Origin: Escherichia phage forsur
Strand: one strand, 5' to 3'
DNA: 42,476 nucleotides
Sequence record: MN850617.1
This document shows positions 1 to 42,476 of this stretch, one piece after another. The position numbers and the translations under genes were made by a program. The notes beneath the pieces were generated by a model that saw nothing but the letters and a program-made list of their open reading frames with translations, had not been told where the DNA came from and searched no databases. The number at the start of each line of letters is the position of its first letter. Position 1 is the first letter of the stretch.

Positions 1-487
1 CCGTATCATCTCCATGCTGTTGGAGAAGTTCCCGCAGGTTCACGTAGTGTGTGCCGAGGGCAACCACGATATGGCCAGCTCAATCTGGATGCGAGAGCTG
101 CTGCATGTACTGTACGCCGACGAGCCGCGTGTCACTGTTGACCGCAGCCCTGACCCGTACTACTGCTATGAGCATGGCGAGACGGCACTGTTCTTCCACC
201 ATGGTCACAAGCGTAAGGCTGAGCAACTGGAGACTGTGCTGGTTGCGAAGTTCCGCGAAGTGTATGGCCGAACCAAACATGCGTATGCACACGTTGGCCA
301 CCTGCATCACAAGAAGGTGCTGGAGTCTGCCGTCATGATTGTCGAGCAGCACCAGACGCTGGCAGCGAAAGATGCCTATGCTTCTCGTGGTGGTTGGCTG
401 AGCGAGCGCAGCGCGAGCGTGATTACTTACCACGCCCGGTACGGTGAGGTCGCACGATTCACCATTAGCCCGGAGATGTTGGAGTGA
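1..487 (+). CDS. calcineurin-like metallophosphoesterase, 3' portion of a gene that wraps around the window ends (5' portion at 41848..42476)
   Basis: Reading frame is open from position 2 with no upstream stop; contains phosphoesterase motifs GNHD, HHGH and GHLH. Motifs DYH and GDFLHWD sit at the window end in the same frame (the 2 terminal nt plus nt 1 form one codon). Stop TGA at 485..487. Confidence 0.75.
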   Translation, partial: RIISMLLEKFPQVHVVCAEGNHDMASSIWMRELLHVLYADEPRVTVDRSPDPYYCYEHGETALFFHHGHKRKAEQLETVLVAKFREVYGRTKHAYAHVGHLHHKKVLESAVMIVEQHQTLAAKDAYASRGGWLSERSASVITYHARYGEVARFTISPEMLE

Positions 488-708
488 GTAGAACCCTGTA
501 CCAAGAAGATGTGGTGCAGCTCAAAGATGACGGCCTCTCGATAGACTGGGAGGCCAACACGCAGGTCGAGCTGTACAAAGATGGCACCGTCTGTATCTCG
601 CAGGAAGGGGAGCAGGTGTGGGTGCCGTGGGCATATGTCAAAGATATTATCTTCGCTCTTGAGGAAGCACACGATGCACATGAAAGACACCGTAGTAGTA
701 GACCTTGA
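484..708 (+). CDS. hypothetical small acidic protein (GTG start overlapping upstream stop as GTGA)
   Basis: 74-codon ORF from the six-frame track; start codon overlaps the stop of the phosphoesterase gene. Overlaps the next gene by ~35 nt. No recognisable motif. Confidence 0.35.
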   Translation: MSRTLYQEDVVQLKDDGLSIDWEANTQVELYKDGTVCISQEGEQVWVPWAYVKDIIFALEEAHDAHERHRSSRP

Positions 709-1177
709 CGGCACACTGGCTGATGGCCGTTGGCGTCTGCACCTGCTGCCTCCACCGGAGCGTCGGCACCTTGATGAAGCGTGGGCCGAGTTCAACTTGG
801 CTGGCGCTGACGACCCAGCGTTTCAGGACACGATTGATATTGTGAACGCACTGGCCCTCACGTATCGCATTATCATCCTGACCGGACGCGGAGCCGTGGC
901 CCGTGAAGTAACCGAGCAGTGGCTCGATGACAATGGTGTGGTGTACGACAAGCTCATCATGCGTGAGATTGGCGACTGCCGCAAAGACACTGAGATGAAG
1001 CGTGCAGCGCTGGAAGACATTGGCATTGAGAATATTGTCTGTGCCTTTGATGACCTGCCGCACATCGTGGACTTCATGCGAAGCCTAGGCATTACCGTGT
1101 ATGAAGTTACCCGGTACGAGGACAACCATGAGTACGTCCACGCCAATGCGAAATACGATGGAGATAAAGATGCCTAA
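674..1177 (+). CDS. HAD-superfamily phosphatase-like protein
   Basis: ATG at 674 preceded by GAGGAAG; N-terminus MHMKDTVVVDLDGTLADG carries the HAD motif I (DxDGT). The ORF track starts it earlier at 581, but the RBS supports 674. Confidence 0.7.
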   Translation: MHMKDTVVVDLDGTLADGRWRLHLLPPPERRHLDEAWAEFNLAGADDPAFQDTIDIVNALALTYRIIILTGRGAVAREVTEQWLDDNGVVYDKLIMREIGDCRKDTEMKRAALEDIGIENIVCAFDDLPHIVDFMRSLGITVYEVTRYEDNHEYVHANAKYDGDKDA

Positions 1178-1706
1178 ACGTGGTGACAAGTTCTGTCTGG
1201 ATATCAACCGTGAATACCACAACGCTCGGCTCAATGAGCTGCGCGATAACGGTGTCATCCTAACCTACGACGAGCCTTACGATGTACCGAATGACAGTCG
1301 TGATTACTACACCTGCGTGTACAACGGCAAGACTGAGGTGCTGGTGCTGGAACCATATGAGGTGCAGGAAGTGCAGACGGCATTCATCCCGGTAGAGCCG
1401 GAGGCCGGGCCGGGCGGTATGAAGTATGACGGCGGCAAGCCACGCATGGCCCTGCTGCTCGACGGCTGCCCGAATGCACTGGAGGCTGTGGCCAGCGTGC
1501 TGACCTTCGGCGCTCAGAAGTATGCAGCTCACTCATGGCAGACTGTGCCGGAAGGTGAGGAACGTTACAAGTCAGCGCTGCTCCGGCACCTGACTGCGGT
1601 GGGTAAGGGCGAAGAACTCGACCCGGAATCTGGCCTGCACCATCTGGCGCACGCCGCTTGCAACGCACTGTTCATTCTCGAACTGGCATTAAGGAAAACT
1701 AAATGA
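1170..1706 (+). CDS. hypothetical protein with dATP/dGTP pyrophosphohydrolase-like N-terminal-type domain (tentative)
   Basis: ATG at 1170 after GGAGATAAAG; segment KYDGGKPRMALLLDGCPNALEAVASVLTFGAQKYAAHSW resembles, from memory, the KYD..GK..FGA.KY..NW signature of phage dNTP pyrophosphohydrolase N-domains. Domain call unverified. Confidence 0.5.
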   Translation: MPKRGDKFCLDINREYHNARLNELRDNGVILTYDEPYDVPNDSRDYYTCVYNGKTEVLVLEPYEVQEVQTAFIPVEPEAGPGGMKYDGGKPRMALLLDGCPNALEAVASVLTFGAQKYAAHSWQTVPEGEERYKSALLRHLTAVGKGEELDPESGLHHLAHAACNALFILELALRKTK

Positions 1707-27451: not shown

Positions 27452-27844
27452 ATGTACCGTATCTATGCAAGCGCATATCGTCAGAACAACGCTGAGTGTG
27501 TTAATCTGGCGCTTCATTGCAAGGCACTGCGAACGGTGCAGGATATGTTCGGAGTGATTCCGGTCACACTGACAGGCAAGTTCGACAATGCGTATGAGTT
27601 AAGCATGGTCTTTCCTGTCGATGGAATCTACGAAATCAGACAGGCTGTTAAGCTGTTCTGTAAAGCCTTTGAACAGGACTGCATCATGGTAGTGACCGAT
27701 GACAATGATGCAATCTTCATGGATTCACCATATCCGGGCAAGCCTGCTGGCAAGTTTGTCAGCAAGACAGAAGCGGAGATGGAAGCCGGGCAGTTCACTG
27801 CTTGGACTTACGATGGTGAGCAATTTTGGGTAGTGGAGGCGTAA
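27452..27844 (+). CDS. hypothetical early protein (130 aa), first gene after the leader
   Basis: ATG 27452 with GGAG 8 nt upstream; ORF in track. Confidence 0.7.
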   Translation: MYRIYASAYRQNNAECVNLALHCKALRTVQDMFGVIPVTLTGKFDNAYELSMVFPVDGIYEIRQAVKLFCKAFEQDCIMVVTDDNDAIFMDSPYPGKPAGKFVSKTEAEMEAGQFTAWTYDGEQFWVVEA

Positions 27845-36176: not shown

Positions 36177-36340
36177 AGGGGCGCAGCTATCGCCGTTGCT
36201 CTTGCGGCGGCTGCCTGCTGGTTGAGCAGGTCAAGGGCAAAGCCACTGGCAAACCGCTGGTGATTTACGAGTGTGAAAAGTGTGGAGCTAAGCAGTATGG
36301 AAGACAAGGTGTATCGAGCAGCACCCTTAACCCAGCGTGA
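36173..36340 (+). CDS. small zinc-ribbon protein (55 aa), speculative
   Basis: GTG start overlapping upstream stop (GTGA); product has CSCGGC...CEKCG (two Cys pairs ~20 residues apart); not in ORF track; overlaps next ORF. Confidence 0.35.
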   Translation: MKGRSYRRCSCGGCLLVEQVKGKATGKPLVIYECEKCGAKQYGRQGVSSSTLNPA

Positions 36341-36488
36341 ACAAGACACCATCCGGGCGCAGTACCGGAAGGGTGATGCGTTCCGTGGGGAAGAAGCATT
36401 GGGTGAGCGCTACAATGTGGCACCCGAAGATATCGTGGCTGTGGTTAACTTCACCTACCGTAAGGGGAAACAGAAGCATGATAAGTAA
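36297..36488 (+). CDS. hypothetical protein (63 aa)
   Basis: In-frame ATG within track ORF 36273..36488; weak RBS. Confidence 0.45.
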   Translation: MEDKVYRAAPLTQREQDTIRAQYRKGDAFRGEEALGERYNVAPEDIVAVVNFTYRKGKQKHDK

Positions 36489-37161
36489 TGCCGAAGCTAA
36501 GCGCGTGTGGGCAGAAGACATCTGCCGTCTGCTGCAATCCGAAGAACTGAACTTCGTGGTTGCCGGGGGAGGGGCAAGGGATACCGCGTTGGGTGTTGAG
36601 CCGAAGGACTACGACATTGTGGTCTTTGGTTGGGGTGGTGATGTGAGCCGTGTGGCTGGCCGACTGGACTGGCTGGACTCCAGACTGGAGGACTATGCCA
36701 AGCAGCACGAGCTGTCGTATGAATACATGCCGAGCTATCACGATGCAGCAGAGGGTGGCGACTTCGGCTCCCGGCTGTGGGGTGTGTATAAGATTGGCCC
36801 GGTCGATGTGATTATCAGTAAGTGTGGGTGCTGGTCACAGGTACTGAACGAGTTCGACTTCAACCTGAACCAGTTCTACTTCCCGTCCAGTATCCCGCGT
36901 TACTCCGGCCAGTACAGCCGTGACCCCGGCGAGTTCATGGCGTATCCGTATGAGCCGAACCTCACTGCCGAAGATGTGCAGTGGTTCCCGGCGCTGGCCA
37001 GCCTGGTAGAAAGCTATGATGACCTGCTGACTCTCCGTGTCTGCCGACCGGATGCCAGCCTGAGTCGTGTGGCTTACATGCTGGAGAAGCACGAGAAGTA
37101 TCTGCCAGCCATTGAAGCATACGTTAATCGTATGCCCGACCACTTAGGTGGCAAAGCATAG
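36478..37161 (+). CDS. Pol-beta-superfamily nucleotidyltransferase (CCA-adding / poly(A) polymerase head-domain-like)
   Basis: ATG 36478 with AAGGGGAAA upstream; VVAGGGARDTALGVEPKDYDIVVFG matches the recalled GG.VRD...DxD head-domain signature. Confidence 0.6.
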   Translation: MISNAEAKRVWAEDICRLLQSEELNFVVAGGGARDTALGVEPKDYDIVVFGWGGDVSRVAGRLDWLDSRLEDYAKQHELSYEYMPSYHDAAEGGDFGSRLWGVYKIGPVDVIISKCGCWSQVLNEFDFNLNQFYFPSSIPRYSGQYSRDPGEFMAYPYEPNLTAEDVQWFPALASLVESYDDLLTLRVCRPDASLSRVAYMLEKHEKYLPAIEAYVNRMPDHLGGKA

Positions 37162-37171
37162 CGGGGGATTG

Positions 37172-39637
37172 ATGGCTATTCGAGCACAGATTATCGACGT
37201 TGAAACTGAGAACCATGAGTGGTATGGGGAGCTGGCATCACCTCGCTGCCCTGACAACTACGTGGTGATGCAGGGACAGCGCGACTGTGTGCTGACCAAG
37301 GATGGCTGGGAGTTCTACAAGCGTGAGGAATATCGGTACGCATCCCGTGAGGATTGGCTGGCGAACAAGAGCCTGCACCTCCACCCGGATACGAACATAC
37401 TGGTTGCACACAACGCGCCGTATGAACTGAGCTGGTGGTTCGAGCATTACGGTGACGAGTTCAAGGCATTCCTCTTACGAGGTGGCCGCGTATTCTGTAC
37501 CGCTTATGCTGAGTATCTGCTGACACACCAGCAATCCCAGTACCCATCCTTGAACGAGACAGCACCGAAGTATGGTGGTACTCACAAGGTGGATGCAGTC
37601 AAGGCAATGTGGGAGTCAGGTTATCTGACCAGCCAGATTGACGCTGAGCTGCTGAGCGAGTATCTGTCCGGGCCGTCCGGCGATATCGAGAACACGACCA
37701 AGCTGTTCGTTGGTCAGTGGGCAGAGCTGACGAAGCAGGGCATGTTGCAGATGGCACTGACCCGGTTCGAAGGTATGCTCATGTGGGCGTACATGATGCA
37801 CTCCGGTCTGCACGTTGACCGTGAGGTAGCAGAGCGTAACCGCCGTGAGTTGCAGGATTCAATCAGTGGGTTAACCGAGACACTGATGGGCTACCTGCCT
37901 GCCGACATGCCGAGTGAAGCGCGTGAGCAATTCAAGTTCACGTCTGCATATCACATGAGCGCGTTCGTGTTCGGCGGCGTGATGAAGTACAAGGCGCGGG
38001 TCGAGCGCCGGGATGCCGATGGCAATCTCATTTACGTGAAGGTGGATGCACCACTGTTCAAGCGTGGCAAGGACAAGTGGCTCAAGCATACCAGCGAGTG
38101 CGTGTGGGATGATGAGACTGGGTTGTGGTATGACCCGGTTGAGAAGGTACACCAGACTATCTACTCCAGCGGCAAGCACAAAGGCGAGCCGAAGTTTGAG
38201 AAGCTGGCGACCGATGAGGTGGACACTAAGTGGGGTGAGGTACTGTTCCGGCTGCCCGGTCTGCTGCGTGTGCAGGACAGACGGGCGCGGGAGATTGCCG
38301 ACAACCTTGAGTGGGAAGACCCGAAGCGTCCGGGTGAATATCTCCGGCGCACTGGTGACTGGGTAGGTAAGCGCAAGCTGGCTGACGGTTCTCCTGTATT
38401 CAGTACGGCGGGTGAGGTGCTGGACATTCTGGCAGCTCGTAAGATTCCCGGCGTCGTGGAGATTGCTGACCGGGCCAAGGCGCAGAAAGACCTAGGCACC
38501 TACTACCTCAGCGAGACGTTTGATGAGGATGGCAACGTGACTGGCCAGTCGGGGATGATGCAGTTCATCCAGCCGGACAGTATCGTACACCACACCATCA
38601 ACATGACCGCGACTGAGACGACACGCTTGTCGTCGCAGCGACCGAACAGCCAGAACCTGCCGCGTAAAGGTACGAGTAAAGTTAAGCAGATGTTCACCTC
38701 CCGCTTTGGCGAAGGTGGCCGCATCGTTGAGGCTGACTACTCGGCACTGGAAGTGGTGGGGTTGGCCGGGTTCAGTAAGGACAAGAACCTGATTCGTGCA
38801 TTGCTCGATGGTATCGACATGCACTGTATGCGATTGTCTGCTCAACTCAATGAGCCATACGAGGACGTGCTTAAGAAGTGCAAGGATGAGTCCCATCCTG
38901 ACCATGCACGATACAGTCAGATGCGTACTGACATCAAGCCCAAGGCGTTCTCCTATCAGTATGGTGCAACAGCGCGGGGCATTGCCTACTCGACTGGTTG
39001 CTCGGAGGAAGAAGCACAGGCGTTCATCGACAACGAGAAGGGTCTGTTCCCGGAAGTTGAAGAATGGTTCGACGCTGTAATCTTCCCCGCCGTTGAGCGT
39101 AGTGGACAGAGCAACGTGTTCAAGGAACAAGATGAGAACGGACGGTGGCAGGTGTATCGCCGTGGTCACTTCCGCTCGCCGGGTGGAACTTGTTATTCAT
39201 TCCGTCAGTACGAGAAATGGAACAAGGCGGCGCGTGCTTATCTGATGGAATACAAACCAACCCAAATGCGTAACTATCCTATTCAGGGTGAGACAGCGTT
39301 TTGGGTACAGGGAATTGGTGGGCTGCTGTTCCGCTGGCTGCTGGCCAATGACTTCTTTGGTGGGCGTGTGGTTCCCATCAACCAAGTGCATGACGCATTC
39401 TATTTCGACGTGGCACCTGACTGCCCTCACGAGTTCTTCGTTGGACTCAAGGCAATCATGGAATCCATACCGGAATACTACAACCACATCTGGCCTGAAT
39501 ATAACCTGACAGTTCCGTTTCCGGCAGAGGTAGAAGCTGGGCCAAGCATGTACGAAAAGCATCACGTAGAGACGACAGCCGAAGAAGTGCTGGAGTTCAA
39601 ACGTAACTTCCTGACGAGTAAGGGTATTAGCATATGA
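37172..39637 (+). CDS. family A DNA polymerase with 3'-5' exonuclease domain
   Basis: Exo motif IIDVETE; polymerase motif A ADYSALEVV, motif B KPKAFSYQYGATARG, motif C QVHDAFYFD; ATG 37172 with GGGGGA upstream (track lists GTG 37148). Confidence 0.95.
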   Translation: MAIRAQIIDVETENHEWYGELASPRCPDNYVVMQGQRDCVLTKDGWEFYKREEYRYASREDWLANKSLHLHPDTNILVAHNAPYELSWWFEHYGDEFKAFLLRGGRVFCTAYAEYLLTHQQSQYPSLNETAPKYGGTHKVDAVKAMWESGYLTSQIDAELLSEYLSGPSGDIENTTKLFVGQWAELTKQGMLQMALTRFEGMLMWAYMMHSGLHVDREVAERNRRELQDSISGLTETLMGYLPADMPSEAREQFKFTSAYHMSAFVFGGVMKYKARVERRDADGNLIYVKVDAPLFKRGKDKWLKHTSECVWDDETGLWYDPVEKVHQTIYSSGKHKGEPKFEKLATDEVDTKWGEVLFRLPGLLRVQDRRAREIADNLEWEDPKRPGEYLRRTGDWVGKRKLADGSPVFSTAGEVLDILAARKIPGVVEIADRAKAQKDLGTYYLSETFDEDGNVTGQSGMMQFIQPDSIVHHTINMTATETTRLSSQRPNSQNLPRKGTSKVKQMFTSRFGEGGRIVEADYSALEVVGLAGFSKDKNLIRALLDGIDMHCMRLSAQLNEPYEDVLKKCKDESHPDHARYSQMRTDIKPKAFSYQYGATARGIAYSTGCSEEEAQAFIDNEKGLFPEVEEWFDAVIFPAVERSGQSNVFKEQDENGRWQVYRRGHFRSPGGTCYSFRQYEKWNKAARAYLMEYKPTQMRNYPIQGETAFWVQGIGGLLFRWLLANDFFGGRVVPINQVHDAFYFDVAPDCPHEFFVGLKAIMESIPEYYNHIWPEYNLTVPFPAEVEAGPSMYEKHHVETTAEEVLEFKRNFLTSKGISI

Positions 39638-41532: not shown

Positions 41533-41839
41533 TGAGCCGATGGTTGACCTCAAGCTCATGGTGGTTGACCACGACCATGTGACTGGAGAGATTCGCGGTG
41601 TTATCTGCCGCTGGTGTAATGCTCAGCTCGGTAAGGTGGAGAACTCTGCCAACCGAGCAAAGCGCCAGCGCACAGTGGATGACTGGTTGGATAGCGCCAT
41701 CGAGTGGCGACGTAAGCAGCACACTGGTCTGATGTATCCGACACATAAGACAGAGGCTGAGAAGAAAGCGGCAGCAGCCGACAGACGTAAAAAGGCAGCA
41801 GCAGCTAAAGCGCGTGCCATAATCACTAAGGGGAAATGA
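41459..41839 (+). CDS. recombination endonuclease VII
   Basis: CNCPLCDEPM...VDHDHVTGEIRGVICRWCNAQLG matches the Endonuclease VII zinc-binding/catalytic signature; start uncertain (41459 with GAGGA upstream, or 41507); overlaps exonuclease gene end. Confidence 0.8.
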   Translation: MRKVTGATLLQLRKNAMGCNCPLCDEPMVDLKLMVVDHDHVTGEIRGVICRWCNAQLGKVENSANRAKRQRTVDDWLDSAIEWRRKQHTGLMYPTHKTEAEKKAAAADRRKKAAAAKARAIITKGK

Positions 41840-41847
41840 TGACGAAG

Positions 41848-42476
41848 TTAAGTAACGCACAGCTCAAGGCAGATATCGCTGAGGGTCTTGGCACCACTGA
41901 GATTGCTGAGAAGCATGACATGACCACGGGTGCCATTCGATACCGGAAGCGCCAGCTTGCCAAGAGCGGCTGGAGTCCTGAGCACGACATGACCAAGGAA
42001 GTGCCGGAGCCGTATGCGGTTAAGGGTACGTCCACGCTGTATGATAAGGACGGCAACGTGGTCATGCAGTGGGTGAAGACTGCGCTCGACCGTGAGCAGG
42101 AGCTGGCCCTGCTGCAAGAGGCAGTGGATGCAATCAGCGAAACCATTACCCCGGAAGTGGCCCGGCCATTCAGCGGTGGCCCGGCACCTGCTGAGCTGCT
42201 GAACCTGTTCATCCTCACTGACTACCACCTCGGTATGCTGGCGTGGTCAGAGGAAACTGGTGATGACTGGGATATGAAGATTGCCGAAGACCTGCTGGTC
42301 AAGTGGTTCGCGGCAGCCATTGCCAGTGCGCCACCAGCACAGGTTGCTATCTTCGGACAGCTCGGTGACTTCCTACACTGGGATGGGTTAGATGCAGTGA
42401 CGCCATCGAGTGGGCATGTGCTGGATGCTGACACGCGATTCCAGAAGCTGGTGCGTGTGGCTATCCGGGCGCAGCG
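41848..42476 (+). CDS. calcineurin-like metallophosphoesterase, 5' portion (continues into 1..487); N-terminal HTH-like segment
   Basis: No stop before window end; carries phosphoesterase motif I (LTDYH) and II (GDFLHWD); N-terminal TEIAEKHDMTTGAIRYRKRQLAKSGW looks like a helix-turn-helix. Confidence 0.75.

Follow-up and report, generated by a model that had tools for sequence, protein, structure and literature searches.

The tRNA is gripped in class II CCA-adding enzymes by the neck, body and tail domains, which also contain EDxxR, the motif that templates base selection. T7-like phages keep counter-defence genes in the early/middle region of their genomes, examples being T7 genes 4.5, 5.5 and 5.9. 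The phage family that concerns us here was described by Evseev et al. (PMC7693777) as putative CCA-nucleotidyltransferases, in a paper that presents no experiments; these authors reported the gene in 37 of 46 Pectobacterium Autographiviridae versus 60 of more than 500 others, and modelled one of the proteins, PP47 gp28, on tRNA nucleotidyltransferases. According to a 2026 preprint on the P. putida phage Emajogi, the nucleotidyltransferase gp22 of this phage cuts host growth 4.2-fold at high induction. Gad2, the anti-Gabija protein of Bacillus phage SPbetaL7 (OQ921347, 109563-110765; WIT28108.1; 400 aa), is needed for the escape of that phage from Gabija, is toxic when expressed, and has an NTase domain predicted by AlphaFold (10.1101/2023.05.01.538930). 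A literature search found no mechanistic studies of Gad2 after the preprint, or of phage head-only CCA-like enzymes, and a search on the Pfam entry PF26128 ('Gad2') gave no result.

The window analyzed in this study, a stretch of 42,476 nucleotides from Escherichia phage forsur (MN850617.1), is an almost exact match to Escherichia phage usur (MN850624), a member of the genus Bonnellvirus in the Autographiviridae. Since an ORF of 374 aa (usur_26, 'phosphoesterase') leaves the end of the window at 42476 and resumes at its first base (41839..42476, then 1..487), the window represents a circular permutation of a complete Bonnellvirus genome. The gene under study, hereafter the NTase gene, corresponds to usur_31, which is labelled 'hypothetical protein'; its features are collected in Table 1. 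Translation of the + strand from the ATG at 36478 yields 227 residues followed by a stop. This start is favored over an in-frame GTG at 36337 because it is also where homologs of 222-229 aa begin; the longer form was rejected, as it would run into the upstream ORF and has no homolog support. The gene is under strong purifying selection (dN/dS = 0.017, 0.134 and 0.114 versus three relatives), and cannot be regarded as a chance ORF. Around it the genes run in the order primase, helicase, two small ORFs, NTase, DNA polymerase, a 295-aa ORF, exonuclease and endonuclease VII. The stop of the NTase gene lies 11 nt 5' of the ATG of the polymerase (for which a GTG at 37148 is an alternative start); the latter gene is called "DNA polymerase I" in usur, and the PF00476 (DNA_pol_A) match is found in an identical metagenomic contig. 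The small ORF immediately upstream is kept beside the NTase gene in Bonnellvirus and LIMEzero-like loci (58-79% identity), and could be translationally coupled to it. A scan for sigma-70 promoters and terminators on the coding strand around the NTase gene returned nothing meaningful.

Table 1. Features of the NTase locus, in coordinates of the window.
Feature	Coordinates	Strand	Basis or remarks
NTase gene, 227 aa + stop	36478..37161	+	phrog_1614 (E = 7.7e-42); 99.6% identical to usur_31
Shine-Dalgarno-like AAGGGG, ending 10 nt 5' of the ATG	36462..36467	+	putative; read from the sequence
Small upstream ORF, 63 aa in the usur annotation	36297..36488	+	11-nt overlap with the NTase start; no Pfam match
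Family A DNA polymerase, downstream neighbor	37172..39637	+	usur annotation and PF00476
Motif A, residues 27-50, VVAGGGARDTALGVEPKDYDIVVF	36556..36627	+	strand, GG turn, helix, strand with D44 and D46
Beta-hairpin, residues 99-114, RLWGVYKIGPVDVIIS	36772..36819	+	invariant R99, K105, D110; predicted strands 100-106 and 109-114
Family signature FDFNLNQFYFPSSIP, residues 126-140	36853..36897	+	counterpart of class II motif B 'RRDFTINA'; Phe replaces Arg-Arg before the Asp
C-terminal long helix, residues 195-218	37060..37131	+	invariant R197, near-invariant K204; secondary structure prediction

[quoted passage not shown] The shortness of the protein, which the same reading had remarked upon, turns out to be the rule in an entire family of phage NTases that have a head alone: a HMMER scan of 1.84 billion representatives gave 401 clusters (50% identity) at E<=1e-3, nearly all of 145-230 aa. 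Homologs occur in 160-189 phage records, overwhelmingly of Autographiviridae, whose hosts are Pseudomonas, Vibrio, Escherichia, Dickeya, Klebsiella, Yersinia and Pectobacterium, and in BFVD there are full-length structural matches to small NTases from many genera. The Bonnellvirus proteins are longer than the others (227 versus about 165-200 aa); the extra length is due to an insertion at about residues 140-185, behind the FDFNxNQ block. When one genome of each bacterial species was scanned with a pattern as seed, only three loci were recovered, all on phage-like Pseudomonas contigs. One of them is a family member on a 120-kb contig of Pseudomonas fontis (NZ_JAMDGX010000046.1, 35549-47923), which suggests an integrated or co-assembled Autographiviridae-like element; the other two matches are on short, phage-like contigs. 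Two much larger proteins were also encountered, one of 1455 aa (P0125) with four tandem units of PolyA_pol head plus PolyA_pol RNA-binding domain, the other of 3111 aa (P0165) with 11 separate stretches that match the family profile; proteins with so many CCA/PAP-like heads are uncommon, and either fusion or an artefact of assembly may account for them.

The signature on which the original assignment was based is present in the translated ORF, where VAGGGARDTALGVEPKDYDIVVF contains G30-G31-x-x-R34-D35 ... D44-x-D46. The glycine turn and two carboxylates of the superfamily, hG[GS]-x(9-13)-Dh[DE]h, appear as VAGG-x12-DYDIVV, and the pattern is found in 186/186 representatives of the family; motif A as a whole, VVAGGGARDTALGVEPKDYDIVVF, aligns to GGGVRDLLLGKKPKDFDV of E. 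coli PAP I. In an alignment of 33 homologs, with identity down to 26%, the invariant residues are G30, G31, R34, D35, G39, D44, D46, R99, K105, D110, F126, D127, N129, N131, F133 and R197. The two catalytic Asp residues are thus among the positions that never vary; in the predicted secondary structure they open the second strand, which follows the GG turn and the helix. A likely third catalytic carboxylate is D110, equally invariant, in the VDVII segment of a predicted strand (109-114); by inspection of the PcnB sequence, the hairpin to which it belongs would correspond to the class II hairpin '...GPE-IIEVATFR'. Further downstream the FDFNLNQFYFPSSIP block aligns to RRDFTINS of PcnB and to FDFTVCMG of Gad2, and the C-terminal helix may be what is left of the first neck helix found in class II enzymes. 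Together D44, D46, D110 and the GG turn are predicted to form a complete two-metal catalytic site, and because the three Asp residues have the classical Pol-beta three-carboxylate arrangement, the NTase is very probably an active enzyme.

The question then is what such an enzyme would act upon. The nearest solved folds are those of CCA/A-adding enzymes, with 134-147 residues aligned versus enzymes of 372-415 residues. When the family profile is compared to solved class II enzymes, the alignment is confined to motif A (E about 1e-4), while a broader profile built from 188 family sequences covers the E. coli PcnB head in full (37.9 bits) and places the FDFNxNQ block on motif B, RRDFTINS. The NTase does not reach the threshold of the Pfam model of the PolyA_pol head, PF01743 (14.3 bits versus a cut-off of 23, for residues 28-50 only), although a few family members score 21-27 bits; in NCBIfam there are only pcnB/CCA matches, far below cut-off, and no match to a Gad2 model. 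At motif B the RRD of class II enzymes is E-F-D in the NTase: Arg-Arg occurs in none of 186 representatives, and nearly all family members have Phe immediately before the Asp. By inspection of the sequence the EDxxR of motif D is absent, the nearest segment being R190-P-D192-A-S-L-S-R197, with a different spacing, and Pfam gives no match to PolyA_pol_RNAbd or other RNA-binding domains. Beyond the head the NTase has only a short C-terminal region, with one long helix, and therefore no neck, body or tail domains. It is strongly acidic as well (pI 4.65, net charge -14), a property common to the whole family (median pI 4.84, with no member above 8); for comparison PAP I has a pI of 9.7, and the E. 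coli CCA enzyme a pI of 6.2 with 5.3 for its head. As the latter head is acidic too, the acidity of the NTase is only suggestive and does not by itself exclude RNA substrates. Without neck, body and tail, without RRD and EDxxR, and with this strong acidity, the NTase would probably not work on its own as a tRNA CCA-adding enzyme or a poly(A) polymerase.

The same comparison bears on a less demanding hypothesis, namely that the NTase mends tRNA 3' ends damaged during infection or by host toxins, as a minimal enzyme for the addition of CCA, CC or A. The identity of the nearest folds and a motif A nearly identical to that of class II enzymes speak for this hypothesis, as do the many database records that read 'tRNA nucleotidyltransferase' or 'tRNA maturase' and the modelling of PP47 gp28 mentioned above. 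Against it stand the missing neck, body and tail (only ~134-147 of the 227 residues align), the replacement of RRD by x-F-D, the sub-threshold scores with PF01743 and with the NCBIfam CCA/PcnB models, and the very negative charge. No RNA-repair pathway is evident in the phage either. A T4-like arrangement (NTase, PNK and ligase) was considered and rejected: the putative 'PNK' is a phosphatase only, the 'phosphoesterase' has no Pfam match, and no RNA ligase was seen in the phage; moreover many phages that bear the NTase, for example gh-1, are devoid of PNK and phosphoesterase genes. On balance we consider repair of tRNA ends unlikely.

The genes just mentioned, and one further ORF, deserve a brief description. 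The 'polynucleotide 5' kinase/3' phosphatase' of the usur annotation (581..1177, + strand) has the HAD phosphatase domain of PNKP as its sole match (PF25109, E = 2.1e-15), with no kinase domain detected by Pfam in its product. The usur_26 'phosphoesterase' ORF has no Pfam match at E<=0.01; it contains AEGNHD and HHGH, and looks metallophosphoesterase-like by eye. A 201-aa ORF at 1101..1706 (+ strand), which is usur_23 and is labelled hypothetical in that phage, gives a match (E = 4.4e-34) to PF18909 ('dATP/dGTP diphosphohydrolase, N-terminal'), a Pfam family that we equate with the MazZ-type enzyme known from phages whose genomes contain 2-aminoadenine (Z).

Activity on RNA could also be directed against the host, either as PAP I-like addition of poly(A) or oligo(N) that would mark transcripts for decay, or as MenT-like addition to tRNA acceptor stems that would stop host translation. 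The acidic surface charge and the lack of an RNA-binding domain argue against both forms of attack, and a lytic phage depends on host translation; no cognate antitoxin-like partner is kept across the family, because the neighbors of the gene vary. We regard tailing of, or toxin-like attack on, host RNA as quite doubtful.

The variability of the neighborhood affects another part of the original reading, in which the gene was described as encoded just upstream of the DNA polymerase and as a member of the replication module. The adjacency holds in Bonnellvirus, in LIMEzero-like phages and in a few others, such as PP99, but not elsewhere: in gh-1 and Emajogi the NTase gene lies between lysozyme and gene 3.8/primase-helicase, in Vibrio SrVc9 it is downstream of the polymerase, and in other contigs it follows the exonuclease. 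A functional link to the polymerase by synteny was consequently rejected. Because its position varies among genera, the NTase gene is better viewed as an accessory gene of the early/middle region than as a polymerase partner, and the distribution of the family in Autographiviridae is patchy as well as position-variable within that region. These observations weigh on the idea of a replication accessory, that is, of a terminal-transferase-like action on DNA 3' ends or primers together with the neighboring polymerase. Such a role would suit the location of the gene in forsur and several relatives, in a DNA-metabolism module directly 5' of the polymerase, and, from what is known of class II motif B, the loss of the ribose-discriminating Arg-Arg could allow the use of dNTPs. 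Beyond the lack of conserved adjacency, the protein is acidic and has no DNA-binding domain, and most Autographiviridae, T7 included, replicate without an NTase; the idea is in our judgment improbable.

A further clue comes from the relationship to Gad2. Emajogi gp22 (PP496445, 11819-12358) is a homolog of the NTase (34% identity over 152 residues, E = 6e-20), and Gad2 itself matches phrog_1614 over residues 26-118 (E = 8.2e-6). In the opposite direction, phrog_4400, which is related to Gad2, is matched by one of the small NTases (P0106, E = 9.4e-8) and by the gh-1 protein (E = 0.003), and with a Gad2 HMM several of the small NTases can be aligned in a stretch that runs from motif A through the FDF motif (best E = 4.5e-5 in the set of 188). 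The HMM of the NTase family aligns Gad2 residues 18-158 at 16.5 bits. The link between Gad2 and the NTase is transitive rather than direct. The Pfam assignments were taken from precomputed hits: PF26128 is found on all listed Gad2 homologs and on 15 NTase homologs, in the latter only as a 'weak' (P0025, 38% identity) or 'faint' (P0018, 69% identity) hit, and no PF26128 hit is on record for the NTase of forsur. An hhalign comparison of the alignments of the two families recovered motif A only (E = 0.02), and Gad2 as a single sequence gave a likewise weak result, again confined to motif A; only broader profiles, such as those above, bring out a significant, in-register match. With the family profile PAP I scores higher than Gad2 (37.9 versus 16.5 bits), and motif A is also closer to that of PAP I, which would suit an RNA 3'-end activity just as well. 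The TF-D form of motif B occurs in 91/120 Gad2 homologs. Our reading of these alignments is that the small NTases and the N-terminal domain of Gad2 are probably distant homologs within the lineage of class II heads, and that the NTase is not a member of the Gad2 family proper.

Overall, the interpretation that we prefer, with a probability of about 0.5, is that the NTase is a stand-alone Pol-beta nucleotidyltransferase, composed of a class II-type head and a short C-terminal helix, with an accessory role in host interaction or counter-defence. It would bind NTP-Mg2+ and transfer NMP to a 3'-OH; the acceptor could be a nucleotide, a nucleic-acid end or a protein. It would act in a way analogous to Gad2, a probable distant relative, and the resulting nucleotidyl-transfer product or modification would be harmful to the host when overproduced. 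We place this role ahead of the others because the distribution of the family is patchy and host-correlated, its position varies among accessory genes, one family member is toxic, the elements with which class II enzymes hold and read RNA have all been lost, and Gad2 is probably related. The distant relationship to Gad2 lends some support to the anti-defence role, which the sequence-only reading had suggested beside the modification of 3' ends; the very distance of that relationship counts against it, as does the fact that the toxicity of Emajogi gp22, observed at very high induction, is non-specific evidence. PADLOC, whose library consists of defence rather than anti-defence proteins, gave no hits for the NTase. 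The phage already encodes at least one recognized counter-defence function, because an anti-restriction SAM hydrolase gene is annotated in the early region of usur (usur_51), in correspondence with 27452..27844 (+ strand) of the window.

That the NTase might synthesize a nucleotide second messenger or a competitor ligand, as do the MNT-like phage NTases whose cyclic dinucleotides serve to block TIR-STING, seems highly improbable: matches to class II heads outscore those to CD-NTases, and neither the NTase nor the family consensus contains the motifs of the CDN-making phage family of Ho et al., namely GS-x-AY[GAN]T-x4-SDxD and NP-x-h2[DE]. As a mechanism, however, synthesis of cyclic or linear nucleotides overlaps with the counter-defence explanation. 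Within the host-interaction or counter-defence reading one can venture, more tentatively, that the head-only NTases of Autographiviridae (phrog_1614) are minimal Gad2-type enzymes that neutralize Gabija or another defence that senses nucleotides or nucleic acid ends. They might do so, for example, by making a nucleotide product that would keep a nuclease off, or by capping a 3' end that the defence system senses.

The NTase gene and its family are already known, in databases and in the literature, as putative nucleotidyltransferases. Their identification as such therefore adds little: the usur gene is in GenBank, its RefSeq relatives are named nucleotidyltransferase, a PHROG exists, and the Pectobacterium paper dates from 2020. 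The names attached to homologs are nucleotidyltransferase, tRNA nucleotidyltransferase, poly(A) polymerase, tRNA maturase and hypothetical protein. The widespread name 'tRNA nucleotidyltransferase / poly(A) polymerase' is probably incorrect if taken literally, because these proteins consist of a head without RRD, EDxxR or an RNA-binding domain. What the comparison does offer is a testable hypothesis, Gad2 being the only relative with a known phenotype. If the counter-defence role is true, the family would be a small and tractable system for the study of how a nucleotidyltransferase disarms bacterial defence, and the role would explain the patchy, host-correlated distribution among phages that are therapeutic candidates; if, in addition, the enzymes are of a minimal Gad2 type, proteins of 160-230 aa would serve as a model for the mechanism of Gad2.

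The position of the NTase can be summarized by its likeness to the known systems. It has in common with class II enzymes a nearly identical motif A, GGxVRD...DxD, but these are proteins of 350-470 aa, whereas the NTase is a head of 227 aa from a phage-restricted, acidic family. The stand-alone CCA-head-domain protein of Streptococcus pneumoniae (NP_344798.1, PDB 2la3) is bacterial, and is a weaker match than the full-length class II enzymes. No relationship at the sequence level was detected with the MenT1 toxin (PDB 8an4) or with ANT(2'')-Ia, whose substrates are tRNA acceptor ends and aminoglycosides, respectively, and the NTase has no antitoxin partner. Much closer are the small NTases of phrog_1614, among them those of Pantoea phage LIMEzero, Pseudomonas phage gh-1 (AAO73152.1), Emajogi (gp22), Pectobacterium PP99 (gp21) and Vibrio SrVc9 (g24), which have 23-40% identity to the NTase and the same invariant residues; the LIMEzero protein is a full-length structural match (TM 0.74/0.83). 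Gad2 differs in that it has no R-D after the GG and carries an extra C-terminal ~240 residues that are missing from the NTase. Its N-terminal ~120-160 residues, on the other hand, probably form a related NTase core, with hGG...DxD, F-D-F-[TN] and then a helix with a conserved Arg, and like the phrog_1614 family Gad2 is phage-encoded, accessory and toxic on overexpression.
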